The notes beneath the pieces were generated by a model. It was given only the letters and a program-made list of their open reading frames with translations. It was not told the origin of the DNA and did not search any database. A DNA stretch of 64,000 nt from positions 2,356,001 to 2,420,000 of the forward strand of contig CM039006.1 in the NCBI GenBank assembly GCA_017499595.2, read 5' to 3'. The position numbers were made by a program, and so were the translations under genes. Positions within the stretch are counted from its first letter, which is position 1, and every line of letters starts with the position of its first letter. This document shows, piece after piece, positions 3,501 through 42,576 of this stretch. Source of the DNA: Psilocybe cubensis. Taxonomy: Eukaryota.

Positions 3501-5206
3501 CGTGACGAGGGAAGGCCACGATGTAATTCTGAAGCATATCGTCATCGTTTCGTGGCTGATCCGTACTAATCATTCCTACAGGTCGATAACCACAGTGATG
3601 ACAATGACTATCAGAATCAGAAGCAAATGATCGAAGCAAAGTTGAAAGAACTAGTAAGTATTTTAGAACATCATTTTATTAAATCATGACAAAACTTTGC
3701 GATGACAGATTTCAATGATGCGGGCTGTATTTTGTGACACCCATGGTAGACGCGAAAACGACGATGAAGACGGAAAAAATAGTGAACAAGACGAGCAAGA
3801 CGAGGACTTGGATCCTTGGCCGGCGAACAGCAAACGCTCAAGGTGCGTTCAATGGCGGCTGGGGCGCAAAACTAAGCGATCTCGAAGGAATTTCAGGCGC
3901 AGAATGAGGGGTGCTTCGCGCTCTCCCAACAAGCTCCGCGGGTCCGACTCCGACTAGTGGGCAGACAACGAGGTATGGGGTTGTGCGCTGGGCAATGGCC
4001 GTGTTAGACTGTTGAACGAGATTTTAAACCACCCACTGGCAGGACAAATTGGGGTTGGAAAGTCACCGAAGATTATTATATCAAGTAGAGCTTGGGTTAA
4101 TAAATTTAGTATATCAATTGCAGATATTGATGAAGCGACATACTTCATAGATTGAAGAGAATTATTAGACGGGAACATCTCGCGTGTTCGAGAGAGTAAA
4201 TTTGGCTTACAGTACGTGTAAAACAATTGAGACTGGTGCCGCTCGAATACCTGATAGAAAAAAGACGGAGCCAATCTATAGTTGCATAAGCAGGAGACTC
4301 GACGGGAGCCATGTGCAAATCCTGTATATTCCAAGTCCCGATATCGTGAAATCCAAATTAAAACGGCAACCTGCAAAGAGGGTACCTCGCAGACCGGGTG
4401 CTTACAGTAGGCAGCGTCGTACAAAACATAAAGTTATGGCAGCATTCAACGTTCAATTCTTGAATGTAGGTGGGTGCGTCGTTGAATAAGTGAGGTCTGT
4501 AAAGCAATGAGGCGGCACATGTGCTGTAGAATATGTTTCCTGCACTGATAGCAAAGATGATTCCTCACCTATGTTTGTGACGCTCGAATACGGGTCTGGC
4601 AGGCGAAGAGGCGGCGGGTGTGCTGTAGAAGGTGTTCTTGGCTTGTGTTTCCTGCCTGATAGTAATAAAATACGATTCGCACCTATGTTTCTGCGTAATT
4701 CACTATCTAAATGAATTGTAGTTCCTCCTCGTTCTGTGTCGCTCACCCGACTATTTCCTCTGCCCTTCCAAGCCGGGTCTATGTCACTTGAACTAAAATT
4801 GTATTACTAGAGTACGCAGCTAGCTAAGTTTATGGTATTAGAGTCTACACTAAAGTGCTACTACTACAGTAAGCTCGTATGCGAACCATCTCTACGTACG
4901 ACGTGCTTCATAGGAGTGAGTGTTGAGAGAGAGGTGGAAAGGCGTCACACCGTCACAAAATCGCCATGATACAGGACAGAAGTTTGATGCCGCTGATGCC
5001 GTGCCACCAATCACGCGCATCACCAATTTGGCGACGGCATGAGCGGCATCGAACTTCTGCGGTACTTGTTGGCGTGCTGGCCATATTCTCACGCTTTCTT
5101 CTTCTTCTGTTCCAACCATGCTCATCTAGCGGGTGAAGTAGCACATATAGACGGAGTAGCGCTGCTATCCATGTAGGCAGTCTAGCGTAGTGTACCATGT
5201 AAATAA

Positions 5207-5510
5207 CACATAAGACAGTTTATTTATAACGTACATTACCTAAGATTTAATAATAAGGATATTACGTGAGACACGGTGGATTTACTCCCGCTACCTAATT
5301 AGGAGATTAGCGTGATGTACGTGTGATTTATCCTGGCAAATCATAGCGTACATGACGTGCCATTTAGCACTAAATGGAGCCGCCGGGTGGCATGCGGGAT
5401 CCGCGTGTCGGGCTGCACGGGAAAAACACGGGCCGCAAATGAACCGGACGGGTCCATCTACATCCCGTGTATTGCAAGCAGACGGATCCGTTTTGACCCG
5501 TGTTGTGCTG
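5207..5510 (+). repeat. Left TIR of the KDZ element (304 bp)
   Basis: Reverse complement of 20569-20872, with no mismatch seen by eye. The inner part is rich in ACGGG/ACGGRTCC motifs. Confidence 0.95.
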
Positions 5511-5651
5511 AGACGGGTCCATTCATCCACCCGCTTCTGTATTCCGACAAATATCCGCCTTGAAGAATCATACATCGGATGACCGTTAATATATGTAATA
5601 AGGTGTATAGATTATACTGGCAGCACATTCCTTTCCACATACCCTGATAGC

Positions 5652-6931
5652 ATGGATTATGCCTTTGAGCTAACCCAATCCCTCTCAAACTACATGAAGG
5701 CACAAATAGCTAGTCGTCTTTGGCATGCAGAACTGCCTAATCAAATCCGGGAAAACTTCAGTGCTGAGACCATGTTTGAGTGCAATCTAGCTGTGGAGGT
5801 GATTTTGCAGGCATTTGAAAATCAAGGTATGCAATCAATAAGCTTTGAAAATTGAGATTAAATAATGTGTGAATGGCAGAATATACGACGTGGGATGCAG
5901 AAGAATATTTGACTCATCTCAGTGCACGTTGCACGGGTCAGAATTTTACCGTTGAGGCTCGCCTGAAAGACAAGTTTTCTCCGGTGCATTCCGCGTTACA
6001 GTACCAAACCCTGCCCGGAACTGTGGTCGATAGTGCAGGCAACATATTGGTGTGGTACCTGCCAGGTATTTTGTCAGAGACAAGGGTGGTGAGTTTTAGA
6101 AACAGACCAATTAATTCATATATTATGCTTTCTAAAGAGTAACAGGAGAGTATGTGGAATTCATTACGGGATATTGAAACAATGATTCACAAGGCGGTAC
6201 CTTTGGCCACAAGCTGGAGGGTCAATGACAGTTACTTTCGACATGAGCCAGGTTGGGTTCAACCTGGAAATATTAACTTCTCCCCGGCATGGTTTCAGCA
6301 AGGCCATGAGGTGAGAAACTTGTATGCTAATTATTATACTGCCTCATATTTTCCTCAGACGTCCAACCCGCTTGAGGTCTCCTTGGACTTGTGTAATCCA
6401 ATTGGACAGGAGTTTATACGAGACACGACGACATCTTCGGCTTTGCTGGGAGCCATCTTGAGCATTATACATCCCGAGCAGTACCGGGCGGGAATGAAAT
6501 TTCTTCAACGGCTTGCTGCGGAACCGGAGCTTGTCCATAAGGCTGAAATATTGAAGCAAATTCTCACAATTTGGAGTTCGCCCTTTGGAGTCATGACCGT
6601 GATCAGCAACCGAGATACACCATACCATCGGGATAATGGGTCGTGCTACTCATGGTACGATTTTTTGATGCCGCTTGGGAAGGGTGAACACGGACGGCTT
6701 GAGCTTCCGGGCCTTGGACTTCGGTACAAGTATGATCCCATGACCCTTGTTGCAATTACCGGCAGGTTGCTTCAACACGGCGCGGTGTGCGATGGAGACA
6801 GGGCAGTCATAGTCTATTACATGCGTAGGACTGTATTTGAAGAGCTGGGAGTCCAAGAGGCAGGATGGTCTACTACGTACGATCTTTTTGCAAATTTACC
6901 GGCCACCAACGCTTTTGATTTTGAAATATGA
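5652..6931 (+). CDS. Fungal TET/JBP-family 2-oxoglutarate/Fe(II) dioxygenase (putative 5mC/6mA-oxidising enzyme), about 4 exons
   Basis: HxD in NRDTPYHRD, distal His in LLQHG, 2OG-binding Arg in GDRAVIVYYMR, plus 'ILVWYLPGIL' and 'FSPAWFQQGH' segments typical of KDZ-linked TET/JBP proteins. Introns at about 5828-5879, 6090-6145 and 6311-6358. Confidence 0.9.
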
Positions 6932-7017
6932 TCAGTTTTTGACTTGGAAGTTGGGTTTGGGGAAGATTTTTTTATATTTCCAAACCAAAACAGTACGAAA
7001 GCTACAGCACAACCAGA

Positions 7018-7294
7018 ATTCTCTGTCCCAGGGTGTTTCCGACGCGTCCGCGCTGAGCTCTTCCAAGGTTACCGGAATCATCGGACTCCGCCGTCGTATT
7101 ACCGGCGGAAAAGGCATCATCCGCCTCCTCTTCGATGTCCTGTGCGAGAGGTGGGCAACTAAGATTCCTCATCCCAGGGTGTTTCCGACACGTCCTCGCT
7201 AAGCTCTTCTGAGTTACCGGAAGCATCTGACTCCTCCGTCGTATCACCGGCGGAAGACTCCTCATCCGCCTCCTCTTCAAAGTCCTGTGCGAGA
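7018..7294. repeat. Diverged tandem duplication of ~130 bp covering the 3' end of the 7159-8783 gene
   Basis: 7018-7149 resembles 7164-7294 (CCCAGGGTGTTTCCGAC...GTCCTGTGCGAGA in both). Confidence 0.8.
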
Positions 7295-8783
7295 TGCTCT
7301 AAAAACGTAGCTGGTGTAGAGGATTCAGTGGTATCAGACGTACTATCAATATCATCCTCTTCTCCCGGAAAAACAGGTCTTGACCTTGCGTTAAAAAGGA
7401 AGGCATTGCTGGTGTGTGCATTTGACGGAGGGCTGACGGAACCGGGCGTAGGCAGAGTATCTGTTGGGAGATGAATATTTGCAGTGTTGGAGGGTGGCGA
7501 ATGATACCAGAGTGGATGAAAAGGTAGTTCCTTGACGGCAATAAAAGAATAAAAAATGTCGTTGATGTAAAATGAAGCGACTTTGAGCTTTGAGACCTCG
7601 AAGGACCGGGCTTGAGCCGTTATAGCGCCCCAACTGTCAGGAGAAGGGTGAACGGGATGCTGAAATTTGTATTTGGCTGAAAGCCCCTTGCCGTTAGAGA
7701 ACGGGAGCTCCTTAGAGTCAATCCACATCTTCTCCAATACAGAATATCTGCCCAAGGCGGCCGAAGAAGTAGTCACTGCTTTATGGGCATTCTTCATTTT
7801 GTCCGCCACATTCCGGCGCAGGTGAGCCAACTCCCTCATTACGCCCGTTAGGATAGGCTGACCGCAGCGGGGACAGTAGGGCGGTCTGTGGTCAGAAATT
7901 GCAATTGGGGATGTTTCATCCCGCGTGTTTGCAACACGGGTCGGCGGATTGGGTTTCCCCGTGGGCGGTGAAAACGCGGAGCCGTGCTTTCCCGTCAACG
8001 CGGATCCGTGCTTCCCCGAGGTGGGGACGGATGTCCGTTCAGCCGCCTTTCCCTTGCCCTTGGGATTGTTTTCTTGATTTCTTGGAGGCCCAGAGGTGGA
8101 TGAACTTGCGCCCTCCTTAGCTTCTTTCCTCTGATTGTTTAGCCGGAGTACCTCTTGTTGGTATTCAGGCAGAACCACCTGGTGGGAAGGACGCAAATCA
8201 GATATAATCCACAGCAATAAAAAAACATACCTTGTTCCAAAATTCTCTTGCTTGCGATTCAACGGTAACAAAGGCAACTTGCCACTCATCGCCTTCAGCA
8301 AATCCGTCCCTCCACCAATATCCCCAGCTCTTGGTCTGATTTAAAATTTCATCATCTTCCCATGCTGACCAGCTTTGATTTAGAGATTCAAATAGAACAG
8401 CTCGATGGTGGGGAGTTCGGTTCAAAACGGCATGTACGCTCTGATTGAGAATTTCTGATATAAAAAATGGAATATCGACTTGGAATCCATTGACATAGCA
8501 GTATCCGAGTACTCTCAGCAGTATAGCCTATCGAGCAGTTCTCAATGCAAGATATAATAGTTCAAAATTACTGTCTTACCACCTCTAGGTCAAGCAAATA
8601 CATCCATTTTTGGCGACGCACGGAGGAAACAGAGTCTCCGTTTGCAATGAACAAACGGTATCCGGCACGGATCCGTGCACCACAAATATGGACATGAACT
8701 TTGGCCAGAGCACGTCGCTCATCATAGGTAAGGAGATGATGTTCGTCCTCGACAGGAGGTTTAAAAAGCCGCGGTAAGTGCAT
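7159..8783 (-). CDS. Multi-exon cargo gene of unknown function (CxxC motif, acidic C-terminus)
   Basis: Consecutive minus-strand ORFs 8568-8852, 8198-8425 and 7159-8301 are separated by GT..AG introns. Contains YCPRCG and a D/E-rich tail. The start MHLPRLF at 8783 is inferred. Confidence 0.6.
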
Positions 8784-8827
8784 GAATTCAACAAGATGAG
8801 ATACAACAAGAATGTTCAAAGAACTGG

Positions 8828-11800
8828 TTAATCTGTAATTATAAATCTCCACACGGACGGATACTCCGGGTTAATTTGACGGAAGACCTTATCCGCGGCC
8901 CGCCCCAGATCATTCCACATGGCAATCTGCTTTTGAGCATTTGCCCTGTGACCAACTAACCTGTCAGGAACAAAATCATGCCGTGCACGCCATGTCTTTG
9001 CCATATACACATAAAATCTGACAGTCCATTCCATTTCCTTTTTTGTCAAGGCCAGCTCCTCTTGCCATCTATTCCTCTGAGCTCGCGCGCGGAGCCAGTT
9101 TAGCCTAAAGACTAAGAAGCCCTTGAGAAAAAAATTAGAAATACAAATAGCAGTACTCACACTCATTAACGTATAATTGATTATCATTGTCCAGGCCCTG
9201 ACGGGATCTCCAAATCCAACTTAGACGGTCCGAGCTTCCTCCGCGAATGTTCGGATCCGACACGGCATTACTATGCTTGCAATCATGGACTTGCAGAATG
9301 GGATATTGTTTCCGAATATTATCCTCGTCTCGCACGCCAGCAGATAAATAGATCATCTTCTGACGGTTTGTGTTGTAGAGTCGCCGGTGCAATTTCCAGG
9401 AAGCATTCAAAAGCTTGACGCCATCCCAAGCACGAGTCCCCATATAGACGGAGTCGGCGGTCCGAACCTGATATTTATACTGCCAAGAAAGCTGGATCAA
9501 GGCTGACCGGACCGCTTCCAGACAGTCCTCTGCGTGGCCATGTCTTATTTGAAGTTCAAGTTTGCGAAGCCCTTTTAAAATGAGGTTTGTTCCCGCGTCA
9601 AGGCCGTCAAAGAAATCTTGTTTGACGGCGGAGGGAAACGGAAGCGGCTGTCGTTCCGGATCCGCGCGGGTAATGTTGACATTTCCAAGATCAGGATCGT
9701 CGTTGTCACTGACTTCATAGTCAAGTATGGGAGCGATGTCCCCTTGAATATCCTCCAAGACATCTTCGCCCATGAAGGTCATAGCGGATCGACAGAAGGC
9801 TTCAACGCGGGTCCGCATGGAGCGACGTTTATTGACCAAGTCAAGTTTCTGCGCGGTGGAAGGATGCTTTCCGAGCTTTCTGACATGGTCCCTGAGCTCC
9901 AATCTAAAAACATGTTAAATTCTGTAGGATGCAATTGAAATAATCGTACTGCGCTTGCTCCAGTTTTAAGCCGGATGATATCCATGCTGCCTTTCCAGTA
10001 GCACCATTAGATGTAAGTTCCATATTTGAAAGATGCAATTCAATTTCTTGGCGTCCAGCAGCCGTTTTCACTTTGCTTGCCATTACCTTGCCAACAGCGT
10101 CGGCCACACCTTGTTCTCGGTCCGCTTCTGCTTTTGAAATTTCATCTTCCCAAGTGTTGATGAGCCCGGAATCTTGTTGATCCGTGATACCCCTATAAAA
10201 TCGGTCTGTGATTCCGGACTGTTCCCGTGCCCGTTTGAACTTTGCAGCAATTGTTGCAGCCATATTAATGGTCTTCTTCCAGTTGGAATCCCCCATGTGG
10301 TCGTCCAAAACCTCTGCTCGATGGGCAGTGGTAGCGGAACGTGTACTCCGGGATGTGTCATTTAACACGGACCACAACGGCTCCAGGATTTCTCCGTCAA
10401 TGATTCCCACACCCGGGACATAGGTGGATGCGTAGTTGTAAAGACATTCCGTCTTGTGCCCGTGGACGTGAAATAAACCAATTGCAAAAATCATTTTAAC
10501 AGAAGGTGGCCAATGCATTTTTGTGGACTCTGAGAGACGCCTTGCCAAGTTAACGCAATATTGACAGTTTATATCGTAGATTTCCAAATGTTTTGTGATT
10601 CCCTGTGTGTTGGTAGTTTCCCTGGCCTGAGTCAAAGACCAATCCATGTGCATCTGCTTTTCACCTTTGTCAAAATCGACAACGCTGGATGGACAGAAGC
10701 ATCCGTGCCTAGCGCAAGCGTGTGCCCCAATTCCACGTACTCTCTTACCCGGGCTGACTCTGTTTTCAGCTTTCTGGGCGTGGTAGTTATGACATGTTTG
10801 TTCCTGATATTTTTTGACACGGAAAGTAAGCATCCGCCGTAGAAGATTTTGACACGGAGCGTAAGCATCCGCCGTGAAAGATAAATCATGGTAGATAACG
10901 CACCCGTTTATAACGTGGAGCAAGAGAAATTGCTTCCTTAATGTGCTCCTTGTAAGGGCCCGGAGCAGTCATGTATCCTTCTCCAACGCTCAACCAAACA
11001 TCGTCTCCCTCGTTTTTCTGATTGAGGTGATCTGCTTTGAAATTACCATCTGCAACATAACTACGTATGTACAGATTGCTACTTGCTGTTAATTGTAGTC
11101 ACCCTTGAAGAATAACTAAAACTTGCCTATCAGCATCATCAATCCAGGTATCAGGTAGGTTTATTCCAGGCTGTGGACAGGCGGGGCAGAATAAGGCCAA
11201 CTTCCCTCTCCTATCTTCAACTTCGGGATGATCCTCGGTCCGCGTCATTTGTGGTACAGGCGGACCATCTAATCCGCCGTGTCCCAGAGACGGGTCCGTT
11301 GACATTCCGACTTCTTGAGACGGACTATCAGATCCGCCGTCAATTGGATCAGATACATTAATACCCATCCTCTCTGGTGATGAATCATGGCAATGACGAT
11401 AGTAAGGGACCACCGCTTCTCTTGTATGCCCTTCTCCGTATTGTCGTCTCAGGACAAGGTCCCTGTATTCTCTACTAAGCCTTCTCAATTCACGATAGCG
11501 GTTCAGCACCTTTTTTGGAAACGCTGGCGAAGTCAGTCTTCGCAACTTTTGGTAATACTGATAAGCCGACGTTTTGCACTCGAGGTTGTCCATCCGAAAG
11601 TCCTCAAGGACCTCAACTGTGAACACAGTTTGAACGTTTTCAAAGCTGGCTGCAAATAATCCCATCTCCAGATACTGTAAATCGATAGACGGAAGGCGGA
11701 CGGACCGGCATGTGCATGTTCGCACGGGCAGATAATGGACTCCGGAGGTGTGCACAATTGCCTTGAAAGGAATTCCATTGTTGTCTGCTGCCTTTGGACG

Positions 11801-12711
11801 AGGTTGGTCCAGATAGGTTGTATCGACTTCCTCGAATAGATCATCGTCTTCATCGTCTCCATCGTCCAGCTCAACCAAATGGGGTACCTCCGGGTCCGCC
11901 AGAAGCTGAGCCGTAAAGGATTCTTGGTCATTGCTCGCAGGAAGCGGATCCAGGTCCAATCCGTGTTCATCTTCAAAGACGGGCGAATTGTTTCCGCCGT
12001 GCCCATGACTCCCGGATGAATTGTTTCCGCCGTCCCATCCTAGGTGGCTCGGATCCGTGGGATAAGGACAACGTTTCCCATTATGACCCAAATACAACTT
12101 GACACCCACTTCCCACAGAGCTCCCGGACGGAAATATAGACCCGTCCACTTCTCAACGCGGTGGAAAGGTGTAAATTGATGGTTTCTTCGCAGGCATTCA
12201 GAACACAAAATTCTAGAGCCAAAGCATTGGCAACATCTCCACACTCCAGACATTCCTTGACATTGCTGACACTGTCCATTCAGATCCGGATCCGGGGCTT
12301 CTCCTCCAATCATTGTTCCAAGATACACCTCTCGTTTCGGGAGCCATTCCCTCAGGTAATCATTTTGAGACTGGATAGGTAAAGTCATCCTGATCATTCT
12401 ACTGAAAACATGTTAAAACATACCTTTCCTCCCGTTCTGTCGTCATCTAGCTGTCTCAGGTTATCAAGTACCTGCTGATCAGTTAGATCTCCCGGATAAT
12501 GAGGTATTTCTTCTTCCAGAATGTTGTGTTCATGGTTTTGGAAAGAGTAAGTCGTTGTTTGAGGGAGGTTTGTTGATGATGATTCTGCAGGAAGTTTGTG
12601 GATCCTCGGCCGCCCTCTCTTTCGTTTCTTGGCCCCACTAGACCAGGAGGCCTCCCGAACATTGGGAAACTCCTCATCCGATCCCCTATCAGGTACTTTC
12701 TTGAAGCCCAT
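8828..12711 (-). CDS. CxC2-domain Kyakuja/KDZ transposase, multi-exon
   Basis: N-terminal Cys cluster (CQQC..CCQC..CSEC..H..PFHRVEKW), CxC2 region (IVHTSGVH..C.C; FCPACPQPGINLP) and KDZ core motifs DGNF, CARHG, GEKQ..MD, YDINCQY, FHVHGH..C, DGEILEPLWS. C-terminal WLRARAQRNRWQEE. No stop seen in the main exons. Confidence 0.93.
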
Positions 12712-13590
12712 GGATGTTGGAAACAAAGAGTCTGACAGCCTGTGAGCGCAGATCTAAATGTAGTATAACATGTTTATTTCTGTAGATAAATTTCCCTCAA
12801 TTATGCCGTTTTAAAGAGGAGAAAAATAGCTTTCATATGACTTATCTTGCAGCATATTTGGATGAGTGAGTGAAATGTTATGAACAAAACTTAATCCAGA
12901 GATGCACAAAATGGACGTGATCCCATCATAAATGTACAATATGATGCAGAACGACCCTTTCAGAACCACACTTTGGAGTGTTTTTGAAATATCTTTTCAC
13001 TGGCTGGCCCCTCATTCCTCCGGCGTATATCATATGAAAGATATTTTTAATAGCTACCGAATGACATTTTTTGTAGAATGTGAATCCTCGTATTTAAGGA
13101 GATATTCTCAATATACTAGAAAATGTGTCAAAATGAGCTCACTGGGATCATTATATTTTTTGAAAAAAATTATGCATTTGAATACCTCTCATGGTCTCTG
13201 AGATGACTGCCGTTTTGGGTTTCACAAGTTTTGGGTGAGAAGACGTGAATTTGCATTTTGTGTTTCTGTATCTTTACAGCCATCTGACAAGAATTTAAAA
13301 CCTTGTAAAATTATCTTTATATAAAGCGCTAAATGTTTACAAAATTCCATGTTTATTGATTGAATGCAGAGGGAACTATTGCAAAATCATGAGGTCAATG
13401 TATGTGACAGCGACCAGCATGCTTTGATCATCGTGGCCGACGATGAAGCGGGATTACCTGATTGGGAAAAATATGACATCACATCATTTATTTAGTATGA
13501 TCGGAAGCTTATTTTATCTCCGTATAACGTGAGATTTGACCAGATCACACAGATACTCATCGATAAGCTACTTGTTACATCACTGCAATT

Positions 13591-15901
13591 ATGCCCACCA
13601 ATGCATCCCCCGACGCGGATCCGCTTCCTTCTACCGCAAATGCCACAACCCACAACGGACCCAGAAACGGACAGACGGCGGAGGGTGACTTTCCGCCGGA
13701 AGAATCAAATATTTGGACAACAAAGGAAATGCGCGTGTTGAAAAAGCATGTACAGCCCTACAAAGATACATCAAAGTCATCCAAAGCAGACTACATACAG
13801 AACACTGTCATACCTGAGCTGCAAGCTACATGGGATCACAGATACTCTAGACGTGCTAGGAAGGAAGATAAGCAACTACACAAAGAATGGAAGGTGAAGA
13901 AGCATGTGAGCTCGTTGTTTCTTTGAAAATTTTGTTACACACATAAACCATCACAATAGCGAATATTTAATTGGTTTAGAAACCATGCGTCAAATCGAAT
14001 TGGTGTAAAATTGGAAGGATTGAACTCCCGTATAACCTTTCAGACGGTATTCCGTGAGGAGAAGTCGGCAGAGATTGACTCCGAGGTTGCGCTTCTATCA
14101 GGGAATGCTGCTCGTAGAAGTAAAGATTGGATGAAGTTTTATCAACAAGGACGTAAGCAGGTTGAGGCCAGATTGACTCAGGAGGAGCGGGACAGGTTCA
14201 TGGAGATCCTCGAGGAATGGAATAAGAAAGGTGTTTCAAAATCAATGAAGGCAAAGTGAGTCGGTGGAACTTGTTTCCGCCGTCAATCTGACATCTGCAG
14301 GACTGCTGCCAGGCAAGGCAGAAAAATACTTCGACAAATGGAGAAACTTAAGTGGCAGAGAATGGGTATGAGGTCCATTACCTTTGAGGGGCATTATGAT
14401 ATTGAGGGTAAAATCGAATACTCAATGTAAGTGTTAAACACGGCATGAACAAGTTCCGCCGTGAATGCTTACGGCGGAAACTTTATCCGCCGTAAACACC
14501 CTACGGCGGATAAAGTTTCCGCCGTAAGCATTCGCGGCGGAATAATTTGGCCCGTATTAATGTTGACTGATGGGCATTGAAGGACCCAGACAAGCGATCT
14601 AGCACTCGACGATGTCAGAATTCCTTCCTTTGGGCAACTCTTTCCATCCGAGTTGGCCGCTTTTCGCAGAGCGTTTGTTCAATACCTCGTCCACATTTCA
14701 GAAATAGAGAAGGGTGTGGCCAATCCAGCACTGCCAGATGCATCGTTTCATGAAAAATCCCTCAAGTTTAGCAGCAATGGATTTCCAATAGTACCTAGTC
14801 CTATCTATGGCTCAACTGGGAGAGAAGTCGCTTATGCACAAAAGTCAATTATTAGAATTTACATGAACAAGGTTTATGGTGTGTAATTTGTCTATGTCCT
14901 CAACAAACTTGCTAACTATGTATACAGCTTTAGCCAAGGACAGGCCTGGTTCAAGTGTTCCTTGGGATGCTCTTGAAAGGCGTTCTGCAGAAATGATTGA
15001 TCCAGAGTATTGGCCAAGTTCAATCCCCGTGACGGATCCGAGCCGGCTCCGCCTGGAGTCAACCTCTGCAATTCTCAAGCTATGGAGGGACCGTCAAGCC
15101 CAAGGAGACATCCCCTTTAAATTTTCAAAGGTTTTTGGAAATGGCTATGATATTATGGAACCTCTCTATCCGTCCAACTTGTTTGACGGCCTAGAAGCCC
15201 ACCCGATACCTCCACCTCCTGCAGCAATAACCAAACGTCGCCTGAGGCAAAAAGCTATACGACTTCAAACCCAATCTTCAAGCGACTCTGAATCATCCAA
15301 TCTGTCAGAGTTTGATAATGGACGGGGCAGTCCGGCATCCGCGATGCCACGCACTACTGCCAGATTTGAAGTCACGCCAGAGACGGATGAGACTCCTACC
15401 GACGCACCTTCAAGATCTAGCGAGCCACCCTCTCTACCAAGTAGATCCAGCCCAACAATTGTCAATCCATCATCCAGCCCAACTCCAGAGGTTGAGGAGG
15501 CGCCTCCCAAGCCAGCTAGAAAGATTATGCCAAGAAAAAGAACAAAGCCATATGTCGGAACGGCGGAAATGGACGGACCCGATGAAGAGAGTTCTGTACC
15601 CCCCCCAGTTAAGCCAAAACCAACTAGAAGGATTCAACCTAGGAAAAGAACAAAGCCCTACTCAGATCCACTTGACACAGTGGAAGAAGATGGAGTCCAA
15701 ACAGGAACAACCCAAGACACGGATAATACACGGGCCGGCAGGGACGTGACTTGTGATGCCTTTGTGGAGACAGTAACAAGTCCAGATACGGATGAAACAC
15801 GGGCCCGCAGGAATGTGACTTCGGATGCCTTAGCACTTCAGGAAGCAAGTCTGCTTGCTGTAGCAGGTAAAAGACAAAGAAAAAAAACTTTGAAAGCCTA
15901 G
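13591..15901 (+). CDS. KDZ-associated alpha-helical/HMG-like protein with a disordered S/P/T-rich C-terminus, multi-exon
   Basis: Exons include ..RIFNWFRNH.. and FREEKSAEIDSEV..WMKFYQQGRKQVEARLTQEERDRFMEILEEWNKKG (HMG-box-like pattern). ORFs 13591-13926, 14011-14259, 14653-14886 and 14876-15901 are linked by GT-AG introns. Confidence 0.65.
14454..14542. repeat. Intronic 89-bp near-perfect hairpin built from TCCGCCGT units
   Basis: 41-bp arms (14454-14494 and 14502-14542), one mismatch, 7-nt loop AACACCC. Confidence 0.9.
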
Positions 15902-16166
15902 CTGTTGAAGTAGATTCATGATACCTATTGAATGTGATGCTTTTTATTCTTATCTTGATGTTTCTCAAACATGTTTTCACACAAAATCAAAACAGAAAGC
16001 GGGTTCATTAAAAATCATCAAGTGCTACTTTTTGGGAGAGATATAAAACAGATGAGCACATGAGAGTAAAAACTATATACAGTCCAAATATTAAAAATTG
16101 TACAATGCAATCTATGAGACAAGGCAAAAAAGGAGACCAAAAAAAGTTACAAAGATTTGAAATACA

Positions 16167-18741
16167 CTACTTTTTTTGGGCCTTGGGTTTTTTGGGCGAG
16201 CGCGATGCTTCAGCCAGAGTCGTTTCCGCCTTTCGCTTCCGTCCAGCCCTTGTCTTTGTGGCTATGTTCGACGCGGGCAGCGTGGACGCCACGATCTCAA
16301 CATCCTCCTCCACAATTTCAACCTCGTCGCTGTCCGAGGGATCAGACAACTCCGATGAGTGTCCATTCCCGGATGGCCCAGCCTTGGAGGATGGCTTAGC
16401 CTTTGACAATGGCTTAGCCTTTGAGGATGGGCCGGCCTTTGACGATGACGATGGCGCGGCCTTTGACGATGGTGCACCCTTTGACAACGGTGCGGCCTTT
16501 GACGTCGAACTTCGAGGACGTGGAGCTGGGAGAGGGGGTGGTGGAGACAGGGAAAGGACGGGTGGTACCGGTGGGAGCGAGGGTCGGCCAGCTGGGGGGG
16601 GCGAAGGCGCTTCTGGAGTCGAACCGGGCAAGAATAGCTCTGTTGGTGGCGCAGACACGGCAGGGAAGACGGGTGCGGGTGGAGGTGGGGGTGGGGAAGG
16701 GAGGACAGGTGCTGGCGGTGGTGGAGGAGGGGAAGGGAGAATGGGTGCTGCTGGAGGTGGAGGTGGGGAAGGGAGGGGTGCTGGCGGTGGTGGTGGGCTG
16801 GGGGATTGTGGCGCAGAGGTGGGTTCACGGGTCCGCGACGGACCCGATTCTTGTTCGACCTCCGTCTTGGAGGGTTCTGCTGCCTGTTTGGGGGCGGGAT
16901 TCCTTTGTTCATCCTGCTCCAGCAAAACCCCGACCACGTACTGAACGTCCTGGATCGCCTGCTTGATGTTGTTGAACATCGTGACGGAAAGCGAAGTGTT
17001 TCCTGCCACTTGTTCTTTTGCCGTGGTCCACTCGGCCTTCAGCTCTTGGAAGCTGTCCTCGACGGTCTTCATCCTCTTCTCCACCGCCAAGTTTGTCTCG
17101 GCGAACGTTGCAATCCGTGCGTTTATCGCCGTCATGGACGCGGAAAGGCCATCCATCCGTTCCATCAGTCGGCCTTGTCGCTCAAACAGCTGCACAAGCA
17201 GCTCTCCCACATCCTCGGGGAACGACCCTTCCCCGGCCTTCCCCTTCGCCGGAACATCCTCTCCCTCCTCCAACTTCAACACCTCCCTGTAACTTCCCAG
17301 CGGCGTCGAGAGGTTGAATTGCCCGGCGACAGTGTTGCGTCCCGGGTAGAAACGTCCCGGGTAGAAACTGCAGTGAATCTTGCGAGACTTGCAAGACTCG
17401 CAAGATTGGTGCTTTACGGGGACGAGAGGCTCAGTGCCTGTCTCTCCCTTGACATGGCACGGCACCTTGAATTTGGTGCATCCCGTGCACCTTTCCACCA
17501 TATCCACCATCCCCTCCGGCACCTGGCGCGCTTTCTCGGATCTCGACCGCGCCTTCCTGATGGGGGGGATATTGTCCTGGTTGGCGTCCTTCTTTGCAGA
17601 CCGGGTGAGCATCTTCCGGGTGGGGGTGGTAGGCGGGGCCTCTTGGTCATCGCCTTCGTCGTCCTCGTCGACGTCGGCGTCCGCGTCTTCGTCCGTGTGG
17701 CTTCCTATGATTGCTTTGCTCTTGAACTTCCCCTGCTTGGACTTCGCCAATCTTTCCAGCTTCTCCCTGTACGCTGGGTGACCAGGCATGTTGGAGGCGG
17801 TGATGTGGGGAATGATTTCCCCCTTCCTTGTCCGTGGGCCCCTGTAGTCCGCTGGAGCCAACTGAATGGACTCCATGGGGTCCGCCGCTTTCCGTTTGCC
17901 CTTGTCTTTGTGGGCGTCTGTCACGGGTCCGTCTTCCACCGGGGGTTCGACTGCCTTGCCCTTGCCCTTCTCGGCCCGTCTCTTCTCCGTCTCCTCCTTG
18001 TTCCTCTCCTCGTCTGTCTCCTGCTCCTGCTCCTGCTCCCTCTTCCTCCTCTCCTCCGCCTTCTGCCTCTCCTGCTCCCTGGTCTTCCTCTCCTGCTCCC
18101 TCTTCCTCCTCTCCTCCTTCCTCCTCTCCTCCACCTTCTGCTTCTCTTCCTCCCTCTTCCTCCTCTCCTCCTCCCTCTGCCTCTCCTCCTCCTCCCTCTG
18201 CCTCTCCTCTTCCTCCTCCCTCTTCTTCTTCTCCTCCCTCTTCCTCCTCACCTCCCTCTTCCTCCTCTCCTCCACCCTCTGCCTCTCCTCCTCCTCTTGC
18301 TCCTCCTTTTCCCTCCTCTTCTCTTGCTCTTCCTCCTCCCTCCTCTTCCTCTGTGCCTCCTGGCCTTGCTGGTATGCCTTGAAATTTGCGACTTGATGAT
18401 GCAAATTTGCCCAGTCGACCTCGAACCTTGCTACCTGCTTGCCGTCCTTGCCCTGGCTGGTCTTGTATGAATACACGACAGGGCTTGCGACATAATCCAC
18501 GAGGCGGAAGTTGGCCGCGTCCCTGACGTGTTCTTGACACAGTGGAACCTATTTGGATGAATTTTTTTTGTTCAGTAAGTCTTATGCTCAAGGGATATCG
18601 ATTACTCACCAAGTCCCTGTAGAGCTGCTCCAACTGAGCGTTGAACGCGCTTTCGCCATTGCGGTAGCACTCTGTAAAGGTTTTTTCCCAGTCAGCAAGG
18701 CGTTGGGCGAAGGTGGCGGTGGTGGAAGATGAAGAGGCCAT
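16167..18741 (-). CDS. Zn(II)2Cys6-like DNA-binding protein with an E/R/K coiled coil and a Pro-rich tail (~840 aa, 2 exons)
   Basis: Exon 18741-18610 splices in frame to exon 18548-16167. Six-Cys motif CTGC-x6-C...CESC-x6-C (RCTGCTKFKVPC..SCESCKSRKIHC), followed by a heptad-repeat region. Confidence 0.75.
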
Positions 18742-19224
18742 TGGGAAAGCGTTTTTTTTGGGGGGGAAGACGCGTTAATGGGTGAGGCACGGTAGAACGT
18801 GGGGTGGTGATCGTGGTTGGAGTTAGTCTAAAAAAAGTCTAAAAAAAAGCGGTCCCGCAAAACAAAACCATACACAAACATGTACAATCTGAGTCATGTG
18901 ATTTCTTCACCAGATCCAGTTTGTGCAAAAGTTGCTAAGTTCGATACACGGGTGAATCTATTTCCGTGTCATGGAGAATCCTCGGATAGTATTGTATTCC
19001 GTGAGATATATAAACAAGCCCACCCAGTTGCACTTTCTGGACTGTATGTCCTCCTACAACTTTATTCCCACCTCTAGCAAAAATTCCCCCATTGACTACA
19101 CCAGTCTCAACAATCTTACCAGGCTTCTCGAAAAACTGAAGGAACCTCCTCCCGTAAAACCTATAAAATGTAAGACTAATTGCATTAATTCAAGTAAATT
19201 TAAATTGATTTCTGAGCATCAGCA

Positions 19225-20476
19225 ATGTCTTCAAATATTAGCAACTCTAAGGAAAGCAAACGCACAGCAAGGACGGATGACCTGGCTCCGCCGCCAATGC
19301 CAGTCATTCCAGATAACCTGGCTCCACCCCCTATGCCTGTTATTCCAGCTAACCTGGCTCCTCCCCCTATGCCAGTCATTTCATCTAACCTGGCTCCGCC
19401 CCCTATGCCAGTCATCCGGAAAGACCTGGCTCCGCCGCCAATGCCAGTAATTCCAGCTAACCTGGCTCCACCCCCTATGCCAGTAATTCCAGCTAACCTG
19501 GCTCCACCCCCTATGCCTGTTATTCCAGCTAACCTGGCTCCGCCCCCTATGCCAGTCATCCGGAAAGACCTGGCTCCGCCGCCAATGCCAGTAATTCCAG
19601 CTAGCCTGGCTCCGCCCCCTATGCCAGTCATCCGGAAAGACCTGGCTCCGCCGCCAATGCCAGTAATTCCAGCTAGCCTGGCTCCACCCCCTATGCCAGT
19701 CATTCCAGCTAACCTGGCTCCGCCGCCAATGCCAGTCATCCGGAACGACACGGCTCCGCCGCCAATGCCTGTCATCCGGAACGACTTGGCTCCGCCGCCA
19801 ATGCCAATCATTCCAAATAACCTAGCTCCTCCCCCTATGCCTGTCATTCCACCTACCCTGGATCCTCCCCCTATGCCTGTTATTCCAGATACCCTGGATC
19901 CTCCACCTATGCCTGTCATCCGGGATGATGCGGCTCCGCCGTTGATGGCAGCACATGTTTCATACACGTCTGTCGTCGACAAAATCATTATGGACTCTCG
20001 TCCAGCTATTTCCTCTGAGAGGAAGCAAGGTCGCTATTCTCCACCCCCTGAAGCATGCCACCTGCTCCTTCAAAACCCTTATTTTCGAACCTACGGCAGG
20101 TTTGATCCCATGGGCGGCTACCCCGGTTCGCCTCCCACCCAGTCTGACATTGAGTTCGAGAATGTAACAGATCAGACGGCGTATTTTAACCCTCCTTTTC
20201 TATATGTATGTACTCAGATATTACCAAGCACTAGATACTGACAACTATTTTAGAATTATACCGAGCAGCAGCTACGGGCAACATACGACCAAATAATTGA
20301 CAGTTCCGTCGGCGACAGTAGTTATGACGGAAAGGTTACAACGTTCAAGAACCTCCGGCTGCATCAGCTGCAGTCAGAGATTCTGACTTATAATGCGCTG
20401 GAGGAAATTGACGCTGGGCTGGCAGGGATTGAATCGAGTTTGGAAAAGCATTTGTATACCGGTAGAGATGAATAAA
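19225..20476 (+). CDS. Pro-rich tandem-repeat protein with a helical C-terminal domain (2 exons)
   Basis: 18 full and one partial 12-aa repeats (xxLAPPPMPVIx). Intron at ~20206-20253. The last exon ends ..KHLYTGRDE*. Confidence 0.7.
19276..19947 (+). repeat. 36-bp coding minisatellite (~18.5 units)
   Basis: Repeated CTGGCTCC.CC.CC.ATGCC.GT.AT.C.. units with synonymous variation. Confidence 0.95.
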
Positions 20477-20568
20477 TTATTTTTGGAGCCCTTGTGCTCA
20501 TTGACTTGCAATACCCCATAAATAACCCTCCCTCTCTGGGAAGACACGGGTCAAATGGGTCCGTCTGA

Positions 20569-20872
20569 CAGCACAACACGGGTCAAAACGGATCCGTCTG
20601 CTTGCAATACACGGGATGTAGATGGACCCGTCCGGTTCATTTGCGGCCCGTGTTTTTCCCGTGCAGCCCGACACGCGGATCCCGCATGCCACCCGGCGGC
20701 TCCATTTAGTGCTAAATGGCACGTCATGTACGCTATGATTTGCCAGGATAAATCACACGTACATCACGCTAATCTCCTAATTAGGTAGCGGGAGTAAATC
20801 CACCGTGTCTCACGTAATATCCTTATTATTAAATCTTAGGTAATGTACGTTATAAATAAACTGTCTTATGTG
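20569..20872 (-). repeat. Right TIR of the KDZ element (304 bp)
   Basis: Reverse complement of 5207-5510. Confidence 0.95.
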
Positions 20873-22079
20873 TAAATAATACAAATACTACTACAGGGAG
20901 CGAAATGGGGACCGAATGATATTGTGCGTGAGGTGTAATCGAAGTGCCAACACAGATGTTAAGCACGTATGAGATCTCTACGCTCGCCGTAAGTAACACA
21001 ATTTTCTGCACAGTGTTGTATATTGGGTCAGTCATTCAGCGCAGATACAGGTCAGCGAACAAGACATCGCAAAAGTTTCGAAGCATGTCTGGTAAGTCGC
21101 AACTCCAGTGTACCCGCCGTTTGCTAACCATGCGATTAGACGCACACGATTCTCACTCAAGTCGTTCGTTTCACCATTTCCTTCCTCTTGTTCTACACAG
21201 GTATGTTTCGTTCTGTCTACCTAATTTTCTGTAGTAACTTACATAGTATAGCCCATCTTCTATCCCGAACACTAACGATTCCTACTGACATCTCTGGTTG
21301 GCTGCCACTTCACTTAGGCTACTTCTACAACTGTTTCACCTCCGTTTCGCGGCGGAGCGGCACAGAAAAGACGAGAGCATTGTCGTCCATGTGCGTCACC
21401 TCGCCAGGCAAAAGTCGTGCCCATCACGACGCAGTTCACTAGGACGCTCAGCAACATCTTTGGCGTGCTCGACTACTTAAGTTGGAGCTTGTTCACCGCT
21501 GCCTTCGACGAGGAACGCTCTGATTCTCTAGTGAGGTTGGCGTATGGTCTCCTCAGTGATCTGGCCAAATACTACTCGAACGGACGGCTTAAGCAGCATT
21601 CCTGTCCAATTGGCTTACATCAAACTGCGATCTGGAAGTTGTATTCCAGATGATACCATGAACACCATGCCTCGGGCATGCGAGATTTTTCGAGGGTATT
21701 TTTTGTATCCTTTCCCTCTTACTTACGACTTAGGCTTAGGGACTGCGGACAGTGACGTTAGACGGGTAATTCGGCGGCTTTTACAACAATTATTTTTCTC
21801 CCTGTTGTTCGTATTATAGCTGTTGCTACAATCTGGCTAGGAATATTGCCATGCATAACAGTGTGGACGTCTTTTCCATGGGAGAATCCGCGTACGTACT
21901 CATCCGGGATCTCAATCTAATATCCACTTCTGATAGCTTCCTCTATCGATAGAATTCGCTACGAAGCCCCTGGGCCGCCATCCAACAGCATTTTTTCTCC
22001 AAGGTTTCTTCACATCCGGCATGGTTAGCGCCCTCGGCAGACATATTCACCGGCCTGATCATCGCATCGCTCATTGTAC

Positions 22080-37904: not shown

Positions 37905-38690
37905 CTCGATGCTCTCAGGGACACCGGTGACCTTTCTTTGTCCATTCTCTCTACCGAAAAGATGTATGTTATCGAATCTATCTCTCATAGCATGTCTCAA
38001 GACAATGAACCCCGACCCCCAGCTGACCGACGTTTCCTTCTTTACTGCTTTCTCGAAGACACGGGGTTTTCAGCGACCATCCAATCGCGAAGAAAGGGTC
38101 CCCAACTTCTCGCAATCTCGTGTATACTCAGATTGTCACGTCTTGATGGAGACCAAACTTATCTGTTTCTCTTGAGCTACTTCGCTGGCATAGATCAATG
38201 CATACAAGACTTGAAGCATCCATAATAACCCGTTGGAGGACTTACAAGTCAAGAATTCATGCTTAAATTCAACCCACTATCGCTGTAGCACATCCTCGAT
38301 TCTCTCAGGCCACCGGTCAGACCTTTCTTTGTCCATTCTCTATACCGAAAAGATGTACGTCATCGATTTTCTCTCTCAATAGCCTATCTCAAGACAATGA
38401 ACTCCGCCCCCCCAGCTGACCATTAATGTCCGTCATTTCTTATCAAGGGCTGTCTCGAAGACACGGAGTTTTTCAATGACCGCGAGGAATGAGGGCTACA
38501 AACTCCTCTCTGTCTCCTGTATATTACTGTCACTTCTTGATGGGGACCAAACTTACCTTGTTCTTTTAATCTAATTTGCTCGCATCGATCGATGGATTCA
38601 AGACTTGAAGCCTCGATAATCACCCGCTGGAGGACTCGACTTGTGTCGAAAATTCATCCTTGAATATTCAAACAACCCAATATTGTTGTA
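37905..38690. repeat. Diverged ~390-bp tandem direct repeat in the NCL1/decarboxylase divergent intergenic region
   Basis: 37905-38290 resembles 38295-38690 (GACCTTTCTTTGTCCATTCTCT..ACCGAAAAGATGTA..CTCAAGACAATGAAC..CCCCAGCTGACC). A third copy, split by the Helentron, lies at ~41055-41095 and 46219-46550. Confidence 0.8.
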
Positions 38691-39103
38691 GGAGCATCGC
38701 TCGTTTTAGCAATCATGGTCAACATGTCAATAGGACACTCAGCTCTGGAGTTTTATGGCACCGAATATCCTATATCTGGAGCCGACTAGAAGATCCCAAA
38801 CCATTGCCCTCATCAATTCCAAGAACTCTTTCACGGCATTGACATCATTCATTCATCATTGCTCGACATGGATTCGTTGATGTGCTGATATTTTTACTCT
38901 CCAAAACAACCCTTTTTGTCAGGTTGATTTATTTTAGACAATACGCAGGGAATAAACGAGGCGGCATGACCCGATGTATTATCTATATAACCTCGATACC
39001 AGTTCACAAATTATTCAGTCGTCTCACCACAACGAAATCAAACGCAGCAGGTATTCTTCTCTCCTCACTTATGAGCTTGACTAACGGTTGGTCTCAATAG
39101 TCA

Positions 39104-40500: not shown

Positions 40501-40804
40501 ATTTCTTTAAATGTCCGATACGAACGTGTTGGACAATAAACCTCACAGTCAATGTTTCTCGCTGGTCTAAGTGTTACATAGGCATATTCAAAAAAATTTG
40601 TGCTACGTATTTTCTTCTGCTGTATCAATAAAATTCAATAAAGTTTTTAAAATTACGGTGTTACCTCCGATTATCCAAGTGTTGGAACATTATGCGAGAA
40701 GCGATCTCATTCTCAACAGCCAAATCATGGTTATATTTGTTCCTGTGCACAAAAAACAGGTCAGACGCATGCTGGTTCCACCACTATCTCTCCAATCATT
40801 CTTT

Positions 40805-42170: not shown

Positions 42171-42316
42171 TACATATGTACATAGAAAGACAAGGATATC
42201 ATAAATGTGCTGAACGAACAATCAATCCATTTGCGTGAACATTGTAAATAACAAGGAATAATTTGTCAAGTCATTTTCATGACAGAAATTATCTGAAGGT
42301 GTTAGTTGGCACCCCA

Positions 42317-42496
42317 TGGGAGAATCCTGCGTACACTGTACGCAGAATATTCCCACACTCGGCTGAATATCGGCGAGGAAGTCCGTGAGAGAATTCTGCG
42401 TACACTGTACGCAGAATATTCCCACACTCGGCTGAATATTGGGAGAGGTTGACCGTGGGAATATTCTGCGTACACTGTACGCAGGATATTCCCACG
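42317..42496. repeat. Three tandem copies of a ~41-bp palindrome (GTGGGAATATTCTGCGTACA-C-TGTACGCAGGATATTCCCAC)
   Basis: Copies start near 42317, 42385 and 42455, between the convergent 3' ends of the two cargo genes. Related copies at ~44317 and ~44553. Confidence 0.9.
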
Positions 42497-42576
42497 CTCA
42501 TCCGCAAGTCAAACTTACAAATTAAGACAAAAAGAATGAGGACGAGAACACAAGTTTATTTCGAACAAAAATTTGA

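Follow-up and report, generated by a model that had tools for sequence, protein, structure and literature searches.

Is the long piece of Psilocybe cubensis DNA in which a KDZ transposase gene and a TET dioxygenase gene lie together between perfect inverted repeats a complete transposon of recent arrival, and what might the other genes that it carries contribute to its life? The stretch analysed here (64,000 nt of assembly GCA_017499595.2, contig CM039006.1, positions 2,356,001-2,420,000) is called the window, and all coordinates refer to it. A preliminary description, made from the letters of this window, had proposed a fully delimited and apparently young KDZ-TET element with six intact genes. 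The element proper spans 5207-20872 (15,666 bp), and the evidence set out below makes it very probable that this is a TET-carrying cut-and-paste transposon of the Kyakuja type (KDZ), a full-length and structurally intact member of a multi-copy family, recently inserted in an AT-rich site with duplication of the sequence TAAATAA.

Ends, target site and copies of the element

An inverted-repeat scan of positions 4500-21500 returned two arms, 5206-5510 and 20569-20873, which are 305 nt long and 100% complementary. Since the outermost pair, A5206/T20873, is common to the terminal inverted repeat (TIR) and to the near-palindromic target-site duplication (TSD), the TIR proper is 304 nt long (Table 1), in accord with the mismatch-free 304-bp repeats, and with the full delimitation of the element, claimed in the preliminary description. 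The outer sequence of the TIR begins CACATAAG and closes CTTATGTG, giving CA..TG termini, and the two junctions read CCATG TAAATAA / CACATAAGACAG ... CTGTCTTATGTG / TAAATAA TACAAAT. The 34-nt tip of the TIR is present at two places in the window, these being the two ends of the element, where shuffled sequences lead one to expect 0.00; k-mer counts show the inner half of the left TIR to contain short ACGGGTC/ACACGGG repeats together with one CGGATCCG at 5483.

The history of the target site can be read from a second copy of its flanks. Positions 1581-1996 match 20871-21286 at 99% identity and positions 1984-2271 match 4923-5210 at 97%, and in a three-way alignment the empty paralogue reads CCATG TAAATAA TACAAAT, with one TAAATAA as against two at the occupied site. 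The earlier claim that an empty site confirms the duplication therefore holds as regards the single TAAATAA within 1581-2271, the site itself being an inverted paralogue and not, as an empty site might be taken to be, an allele. The host DNA contains here an inverted duplication of ~690 bp (97-99% identical), with 2.65 kb between its arms if the transposon is subtracted, and the insertion interrupts one of these arms; the ends and duplications of a second transposon were sought around this outer duplication and none was found, and the open reading frames (ORFs) between its arms gave no Pfam match.

Two readings of the TSD leave the ends symmetric, namely 7 bp with CA..TG ends or a 5-bp AAATA with ACAC..GTGT ends, and a duplication of 8 bp (GTAAATAA) or 9 bp requires asymmetric ends. 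The main text of Kojima (2025) describes complete TET-bearing Kyakuja elements, Kyakuja-1_LB and Kyakuja-2_LB of Laccaria bicolor, with 7-bp TSDs and 5'-CA..TG-3' termini (PMC12730594). We prefer the 7-bp reading, which matches this literature and had already been favoured in the preliminary description on grounds of symmetry, the second symmetric reading of 5 bp notwithstanding.

How many such elements does the genome hold? The top match to the ORF containing the KDZ domain is P. cubensis JR316_0009328 (P0001, 1691 amino acids), whose exons are letter-identical to the window. The 90%-identity cluster of P0001 has 39 members, and the 15 that are listed represent 15 distinct JR316 loci, situated on contigs of eight different lengths. 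Because the transposase exons at these 15 listed loci are 98-100% identical to those of the window, the family is multi-copy, with copies that have barely diverged. The youth ascribed to the element at the outset is borne out by its perfect TIRs and by this near-identity at no fewer than 15 loci, that is, at least 15 in P. cubensis. The annotated models of the sister copies (P0001, P0097-P0111) are inconsistent, ranging from 809 to 1707 amino acids.

From left to right the layout of the element is TIR, TET→ ←G2 ←transposase, an 879-nt spacer, G4→ ←G5, a 483-nt spacer, G6→ and TIR, where G2, G4, G5 and G6 denote the second, fourth, fifth and sixth genes.

Table 1. Window coordinates of the element, its predicted genes and its target site (aa, amino acids)
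Feature	Position	Strand	Basis
Left TSD, TAAATAA	5200-5206	.	Direct reading; single copy at paralogous empty site
Left TIR, 304 nt, tip CACATAAGACAG	5207-5510	+	Repeat scan, 100%
Gene 1, TET/JBP dioxygenase, 389 aa	5652-5826, 5880-6088, 6146-6931	+	GT-AG model, Pfam, CcTET alignment
Gene 2 (G2), conserved protein, 492 aa	8783-8622, 8527-8231, 8178-7162	-	Matches P0001 residues 1200-1691 exactly
Gene 3, KDZ transposase with CxC2, 1195 aa	12711-12424, 12370-11127, 11078-10904, 10803-9950, 9903-9161, 9111-8831	-	Spliced map, Pfam
Gene 4 (G4), conserved accessory protein, 668 aa	13591-13905, 13960-14255, 14301-14426, 14583-14878, 14928-15901	+	Five-exon model
Near-perfect hairpin in G4 intron 3, 41-nt arms, TCCGCCGT units	14454-14542	.	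Repeat scan, 98%; DNA fold -55 kcal/mol, z = -16
Gene 5 (G5), zinc-cluster protein, ~837 aa	18741-18610, 18548-16170 (span 16167..18741)	-	Intron choice, P0112
Gene 6 (G6), Pro-repeat protein	ATG 19225 to stop 20241	+	Tandem array, codon-position test
Right TIR, 304 nt, CGGATCCG at 20589	20569-20872	-	Repeat scan, 100%
Right TSD, TAAATAA	20873-20879	.	Direct reading; three-way alignment
Paralogous empty site, inverted copy of both flanks, one TAAATAA at ~1986-1992	1581-2271	-	Flank matches, alignment

Gene models and what they encode

The central gene of the element is that of the transposase, which with its stop codon TAA (8830-8828) spans 8828..12711 on the reverse strand. Its product matches the Pfam families KDZ (PF18758, 1.2e-37; 130.1 bits for one exon ORF and 140.6 bits for P0001, with a cut-off of 26.6) and CxC2 (PF18803, 1.5e-21; 77 bits against a cut-off of 27), and the Pfam searches returned no SWIM or CxC4 match. 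The spliced model is the same as the annotated protein P0099 save for two apparent mismatches, which we take as script artefacts because both fall at split codons and recur in every model tested. In an alignment of 35 sequences DGNF, D612, D646, H681/H683/H685/C689 and E707/E710 are all kept in the transposase, which departs from the consensus of at least 85% in three columns only, and the same core residues are present in P0099 within a second alignment of 20 relatives; for the conserved DGNF, D and E residues we infer a catalytic role. The KDZ-domain ORF matches 96 longer database proteins, all with KDZ and nearly all with CxC2, the closest being CxC2 plus KDZ proteins of Psilocybe, Flammula, Galerina, Laccaria and Coprinopsis.

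The TET gene at the left end, with two GT-AG introns of 53 and 57 nt, is identified by the Pfam family Tet_JBP (PF12851, 9.5e-19; 67.7 bits against a cut-off of 34.9), so that the description of the element as a TET-carrying member of the KDZ family is supported for both proteins. Its third exon aligns with residues 200-419 of the Coprinopsis CcTET structure (7vpn_A, E=1.5e-27), its second more weakly with residues 79-146 (E=0.003). In the former alignment the HRD motif, the distal His and the Arg are preserved, Ser stands at the position of CcTET G331 and Asp at that of D337; the enzyme is in this way shown to retain its predicted iron- and 2-oxoglutarate-binding residues. According to the main text of PMC12730594, Asp at CcTET position 337 and Gly or Ser at position 331 are retained in the AG-type TETs borne by Kyakuja elements.

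The gene that follows the transposase on the same strand, G2, has its ATG at 8783, 44 nt past the transposase stop, and ends at a TAG (7161-7159). Public annotation treats this junction in several ways, for ten of the 15 listed models fuse G2 to the transposase by means of differing splices and four stop at the TAA. We read G2 as a gene separate from the transposase because the transposases of other species terminate near that TAA (at positions corresponding to 8837-8849), because co-oriented homologues follow them, and because the model starting at ATG 8783 reproduces P0001. Seven metagenomic loci have such a homologue directly downstream of the transposase, and four of the seven alignments start with, or next to, a Met that corresponds to ATG 8783. 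The preliminary claim of six intact genes thus stands in so far as all six are open and can be modelled with splicing; that they are six separate genes is a reading and not a settled fact, in view of the public models that fuse the former 'unknown' gene to the transposase. For the large exon of G2 two relatives were found among 1.84 billion representatives. A 145-nt unit, repeated 1.8 times, spans the end of the gene (7026-7294), and the acidic C-terminal tail recurs in degenerate form beyond the stop (tblastn, 7148-7019, 74-80% identity).

G4 is transcribed, by the present model, divergently from the transposase across the 879-nt spacer. Its sole near-length database match is JR316_0009877 (P0111), the model of which has a longer first intron and omits the stretch RIFNWFRNH, part of exon 2 in our model. 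Because homologues conserve a W-F/Y-x-N motif at just this place, the 54-nt intron would be the better model. The gene had earlier been called HMG-like. Iyer et al. in 2014 are reported to have linked KDZ elements with a divergent HMG domain; a literature search found no paper with both Kyakuja and HMG. The label found no support and was dropped: G4 has no HMG, Myb or homeobox match in Pfam at E<=5, its 11 homologues have no HMG match in Pfam at E<=1, and neither exons 1 and 2 nor two homologue profiles (of 11 and 5 exon segments) match an HMG domain in the PDB at E<=10. A homeodomain- or Myb-like identity, suspected from the W-F-x-N motif, was dropped for want of Pfam or PDB support. An atlas search with P0111 retrieved unnamed Basidiomycota clusters only, with 104, 76 and 54 members.

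The TCCGCCGT unit that builds the hairpin of G4 intron 3 is found also in G4 intron 2 (14277) and, as a 35-nt tandem of two, in intron 3 of the transposase gene (10812-10882), an intron which at 100 nt is unusually long; the unit therefore flanks the shared promoter region on both sides.

G5 contains a single intron of 61 nt (GTGAGT..AG), and its model is corroborated by JR316_0002971 (P0112; 838 amino acids, 99% identity); database matches comprise three clusters only, all from P. cubensis. The protein has an E/R/K-rich stretch and a cysteine cluster C-x2-C-x6-C-x18-C-x2-C-x6-C (running down from 17489), as well as a stretch that is helical and heptad-like and a tail rich in Pro. In having six Cys in two C-x2-C-x6-C halves, of which one is K/R-rich, followed by a helical stretch, it resembles Gal4, Leu3, AlcR and Ppr1. 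Unlike Gal4, Leu3 and AlcR, it has its halves swapped in the alignment; its linker has 18 residues as against x(5-12) in the canonical pattern C-x2-C-x6-C-x(5-12)-C-x2-C-x(6-8)-C, and its Pfam score is below the cut-off. The six Cys are invariant across 14 sequences, comprising G5 and 13 homologous zinc segments. Zn_clus (PF00172) is the matched family in 12 of the 14, weakly so (E from 1.1e-4 to 0.54), and among the 13 only that of locus L021 exceeds the cut-off (22.7 bits). A profile of the 14 segments, searched against the PDB, matched AlcR (E=0.0011), Leu3, Ppr1, Lac9, Gal4, Cep3, Pho7, Hap1 and Put3, and Zn2Cys6 domains account for 16 of the 28 PDB chains among the matches listed. The description of G5 as Zn2Cys6-like may thus be kept in the sense of a divergent and apparently permuted form, supported weakly but repeatedly, and not in the sense of a Pfam member.

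For G6 it had to be considered that the frame might be an artefact of a 36-nt repeat that is open on both strands. The tandem array (19276-19919) encodes 18 units of 12 amino acids (x-LAPPPMPVI-xx), after which there is a unique tail. Variation in the repeat core falls 43 times at codon position 3 and three times each at positions 1 and 2; because it lies almost wholly at third positions of the forward frame, the artefact is ruled out, and the pattern indicates that this frame is under constraint at the level of the protein.

CGG pairs and their possible reader

Is this gene set peculiar to P. cubensis? The 20-sequence transposase alignment retrieved 80 metagenomic loci (given L numbers here). 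Upstream of the transposase, a G4-like match is present in 19 of the 30 loci that have at least 2.5 kb before its N-terminus, 18 of these matches being on the opposite strand; downstream, a TET match is present in 13 of the 17 loci that have at least 3 kb, and is convergent in eight. By tblastn neither G5 nor G6 has a match in the 80 loci. We scanned stop-free frames for the cysteine motif of G5 in a generalised form (C6: C-x2-C-x6-C-x5-20-C-x2-C-x6-8-C), which occurs in the window once, in G5, and gave 17 matches in 16 loci, with none in reversed sequences and none in each of five shuffles. The matches are contained in long ORFs, flanked by acidic and basic stretches, and most are situated upstream of G4 on the transposase strand, as in the window. 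On the strength of these comparisons the layout of zinc-cluster gene, G4, transposase, G2 and TET is shown to be common to related elements.

The ends of the relatives are harder to recognise. Long TIRs were looked for in 14 long loci, most of whose contigs probably do not span both ends. L012 has an inverted repeat of 165 nt at 92%, for which no matching duplication was found; in L033 an inverted repeat of ~2.2 kb and ~80% identity (648-2857 against 15273-17734) bears a zinc-cluster ORF on each arm, and may represent either TIRs of very great length or the zinc-cluster gene duplicated in inverted orientation; and in L037 an inverted pair of 491 nt lies wholly upstream of the transposase and does not flank it. 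The remaining 11 of the 14 loci, on contigs that for the most part probably do not reach both ends, showed no flanking inverted repeat.

What the element and its relatives do share is an abundance of paired CGG triplets. With expectations derived from dinucleotide-preserving shuffles, CGGATCCG is expected 0.58 times in the window (shuffle maximum 2) and occurs ten times, always within the element, of which it is the commonest 8-mer palindrome (10, with the runner-up at 4). Two of these sites are symmetrically placed in the TIRs, and eight are in exons of G2, the transposase and G4. The inverted pair CGG-N2-CCG (CGGNNCCG) occurs 30 times in the window against 8.4 expected (maximum 17); 25 of these lie inside the element and five in the 48 kb of host DNA. 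When the spacing n of inverted CGG-Nn-CCG pairs in the element is varied from 0 to 10, the counts are 2, 11, 25, 6, 4, 5, 4, 6, 1, 5 and 6. By the present gene models 22 of the 25 sites are exonic, exons making up ~75% of the element.

In the relatives the preferred pair differs with the lineage, being inverted N2 in the element of the window and N0, N5 or everted N0, N1, N3 or N4 in relatives. Thus L058 contains 29 dispersed copies of CGGCGCCG in 11.3 kb (0.23 expected), L055 six of CGGATCCG (0.36 expected), L021 11 of CGGCGCCG, some of which form a tandem array spaced at 126 nt (0.33 expected), and L046 19 of CGGCCG (1.63 expected). Other extremes are L004, with 37 CCGCGG in 7.3 kb, L061, with 32 CGG-N5-CCG, and L026, with 31 CCG-N3-CGG. 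When all 256 8-mer palindromes were screened in the 42 loci that are 5 kb or longer, 12 loci had an enriched one (Bonferroni p<1e-3), in every case built of CCG and CGG; the control, the right host flank (20873-64000), had none. In 22 of the 42 loci a single class of orientation and spacing reaches 10 sites or more and is no less than fourfold the median class; in three host pieces of 13-15 kb the fullest class holds 4-5 sites.

Could these sites be read by a protein of the element itself? Zinc-cluster proteins, as the available text of PMC10954478 describes, recognise CGG pairs of set orientation and spacing, pairing through a coiled coil. Because the format of the enriched motifs, CGG pairs of fixed orientation and spacing, corresponds to this mode of recognition, G5-type proteins would be the obvious candidate readers; the Cys cluster of the transposase itself is just as much a candidate. 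The analogy with Zn2Cys6 regulators has its bounds, for the G5 gene, unlike theirs, lies within a transposon, and the putative sites are spread across the whole element, exons included, and not confined to a promoter. In a literature search no paper was found that pairs Kyakuja with a CGG-pair motif, nor any Zn2Cys6-type regulator tied to KDZ elements, the one match (PMC7641404), as far as its available text goes, being concerned with CxC5 and CxC6 clusters.

These observations can be combined in a scheme in which each gene product has a part. The transposase, with its N-terminal CxC2 zinc module and RNase-H-like KDZ core (DGNF...D...E), would bind the TIRs, excise the element and reinsert it by a 7-bp staggered cut; the TET enzyme would oxidise 5-methylcytosine on and around the element, which would counter methylation-based silencing; and G4 and G2 would act as conserved helpers. 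The 25 inverted CGG-N2-CCG sites would be recognition sites for an element-encoded zinc protein (G5 or the Cys cluster of the transposase) and would mark the whole element as 'self'. In its fuller form, which we put forward tentatively and as a possibility rather than an expectation, the proposal is that a zinc protein with swapped halves, encoded by the element, binds lineage-specific CGG pairs in exons and TIRs and so labels its own DNA against genome defence; such a 'self' label might, for example, bring the co-encoded TET to the element or keep methylation off it.

Two points weigh on the part given to G5. Its 120-residue segment matches Zn_clus at E=0.0029 and 18.1 bits, under the 21-bit cut-off, and enrichment of one site class is seen in eight of the 16 loci with a C6 ORF as against 14 of the 26 without one. 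Both would suit the alternative in which the CGG pairs are read by the CxC2 module of the transposase or by a host factor, G5 being unrelated cargo; so would the 18-residue linker of the G5 motif, the lack of tblastn similarity between G5 and any locus, the presence of a transposase in every locus and, for the transposase in particular, the symmetric placing of two CGGATCCG sites in the TIRs, the expected binding place of a transposase. The comparison of loci with and without a C6 ORF is, however, weakened by the truncation of locus contigs, in which a missing C6 ORF means little. Furthermore, CGG pairs are the known target of zinc clusters that pair by a coiled coil (PMC10954478, in the text available), the top PDB matches of the C6 profile are AlcR, Leu3, Ppr1, Lac9 and Gal4, and the loci L055 and L077, which have similar C6 segments, also have the same site classes (inverted N2 and everted N4). 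Reading by the transposase or a host factor nevertheless has a prospect only somewhat less than even, and is the likeliest of the alternatives considered here.

Rival readings, known relatives and significance

Against the view of the element as an intact Kyakuja-type transposon of recent insertion several considerations have to be set. Its putative mobility is read from the sequence of the present copy, and its gene set consists of six open GT-AG models, in which transcription and splicing are predicted; the public gene models conflict both mutually and with those models. The empty site, inside the same window, resembles the flanks at 97-99% as a paralogue and not as an allele; the length of the TSD is taken from a single insertion with which readings of 5, 8 and 9 bp remain compatible; and no sequence in the metagenome contigs matches the TIR tip exactly. 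The main text of PMC12730594 states the Laccaria Kyakuja families to be without TIRs. Placement in Kyakuja, finally, would follow from the TSD, the termini, the CxC2 module and the TET residues.

In the light of these considerations one may ask whether the copy is complete yet immobile, its near-identical loci being the product of an ended burst, of segmental duplication or of gene conversion, and the element itself silenced or domesticated. Several of the 15 listed cluster members are shorter models (809-1039 amino acids) that may be truncated copies, and the element is surrounded by a gene-dense housekeeping region. We regard this alternative as rather unlikely, in that the TIRs are perfect over 305 nt, the TSD is intact and a paralogous site is empty, all six frames are open, the transposase has lost none of its conserved residues, and the copies are distributed over contigs of eight different lengths and not gathered in one block.

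Less likely again, and in our estimate improbable, is that the enrichment of CGG pairs is a by-product of base composition, of CpG retention in a young, TET-protected element or of short dispersed repeats. It is true that the G+C content of the element exceeds that of much of the window (0.52-0.60 at 16-20 kb), that part of the L021 signal is within the array of 126-nt spacing, and that the sites roughly track the coding share (22 of 25 exonic, with exons at ~75%). Yet shuffles that preserve dinucleotides never attain the observed counts, within one and the same element the other spacings, equal in CpG content, are rarer by a factor of 2 to 25, different elements enrich different classes of orientation and spacing, and the 29 sites of L058 are dispersed across 11 kb.

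Zisupton, from the work of Böhne et al. in 2012, reportedly encodes a DDE transposase of the KDZ superfamily and makes 8-bp duplications. That the present element should belong to the Dileera or the Zisupton clade, with duplications of 8 bp and a 7-bp reading that is an accident of the flanking TG, is very improbable, for although an asymmetric reading of the ends allows 8 bp (GTAAATAA) or 9 bp at the junctions, and TIRs of 139-241 bp with 8-bp TSDs are, in the texts available, typical of the Dileera-clade elements KDZ1-3 of Cryptococcus, such readings break the symmetry of the CA..TG ends, the Cryptococcus Dileera elements have CxC1 and the Zisupton-like one CxC4 plus SWIM where this transposase has CxC2, as do all of the 96 relatives with a Cys-cluster call, and the TET residues are as described, in the main text on that clade, for Kyakuja-borne AG-type enzymes.

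The surroundings of the element suggest a housekeeping region of the host. Its neighbours encode peroxin-3, a mitochondrial carrier, MutS, an NSUN2-like methyltransferase, an aldehyde dehydrogenase, a proteasome subunit and ribosomal S8, and these rule out the psilocybin cluster, which a pair of decarboxylase-like genes had suggested. The pair, two phosphatidylserine-decarboxylase-like genes (39403-40500 and 47625-48704), stands in a diverged tandem duplication, ~8.2 kb apart and at ~75% nucleotide identity, with wider blocks at 37950-40630 and 46220-48830. In the AT-rich stretch between the two genes there are repeats of a 60-70-nt unit with an internal palindrome (TGCGTACACTGTACGCA), three in tandem at 42314-42512 and one more at 44551-44610, 2.1 kb away.

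How, then, does the Kyakuja-type element of Psilocybe compare with those already described? With the TET-bearing Kyakuja elements of Laccaria, as presented in the main text of PMC12730594, it has in common a KDZ transposase with an N-terminal Cys cluster, an internal TET/JBP gene of the AG type, the 7-bp TSD, the CA..TG termini and an agaricomycete host; unlike the Laccaria elements, which are stated to have no TIRs, it has a perfect TIR of 304 nt. The absence of TIRs is probably a descriptive rather than a defining feature of Kyakuja. Supplements aside, Psilocybe occurs nowhere in that main text, which likewise contains no discussion of G4, G2, zinc-cluster genes or an internal CGG-pair motif.

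The second point of comparison is Cryptococcus, in which KDZ1, KDZ2, KDZ3 and KDZx1 have been observed transposing (PMC11343200; PMC12810828). In the text available from these sources KDZ1 of Cryptococcus neoformans is ~11 kb long, with TIRs of 236-241 bp, an 8-bp TSD and CxC1. As a group KDZ1-3 (9-11 kb, TIRs of 139-241 bp, few copies per genome) resemble the Psilocybe element in their large size, their long TIRs and their extra ORFs of unknown function; they differ in belonging to the Dileera clade, in having CxC1 and TSDs of 8 bp (KDZ1) or 4-8 bp (KDZ2 and KDZ3), and in that no TET is reported for them there. KDZx1 of C. deneoformans is Zisupton-like, with CxC4 and SWIM (PMC11343200, as available), as against CxC2 in Psilocybe. 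Mobility is demonstrated for KDZ1-3, and the Psilocybe element is known here from sequence alone.

The finding is therefore a family member of a published kind, new here in its long perfect TIRs, and it is less novel in view of the mobile Cryptococcus elements and the Kyakuja paper of 2025, to the extent of their texts cited above. The special value once ascribed to it as a model of KDZ transposition is correspondingly qualified, complete TET-bearing Kyakuja elements having been published and KDZ1-3 and KDZx1 having been seen to transpose, though these last belong to the Dileera and Zisupton clades; for the Kyakuja clade itself the literature, in the texts consulted, yielded no demonstration of mobility. 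What is added is a well-delimited and apparently young TET-bearing Kyakuja family in a cultivable, transformable mushroom, which is useful if not surprising alone, and, given the exact ends of the element, its 7-bp duplication and its intact transposase, an excision or integration assay for this clade would be straightforward.

Two features go beyond the published picture, as far as the literature searched reaches and supplements aside. One is a shared gene set past the transposase and TET, consisting of the divergent G4, the small gene directly after the transposase and the zinc-cluster protein; the other is the lineage-specific CGG-pair sites, which extend into coding sequence. If a protein of the element does bind these pairs, sequence-specific recognition would be joined to an epigenetic eraser within a selfish element, and this, if true, would make it possible to study directly how mushroom transposons evade methylation.

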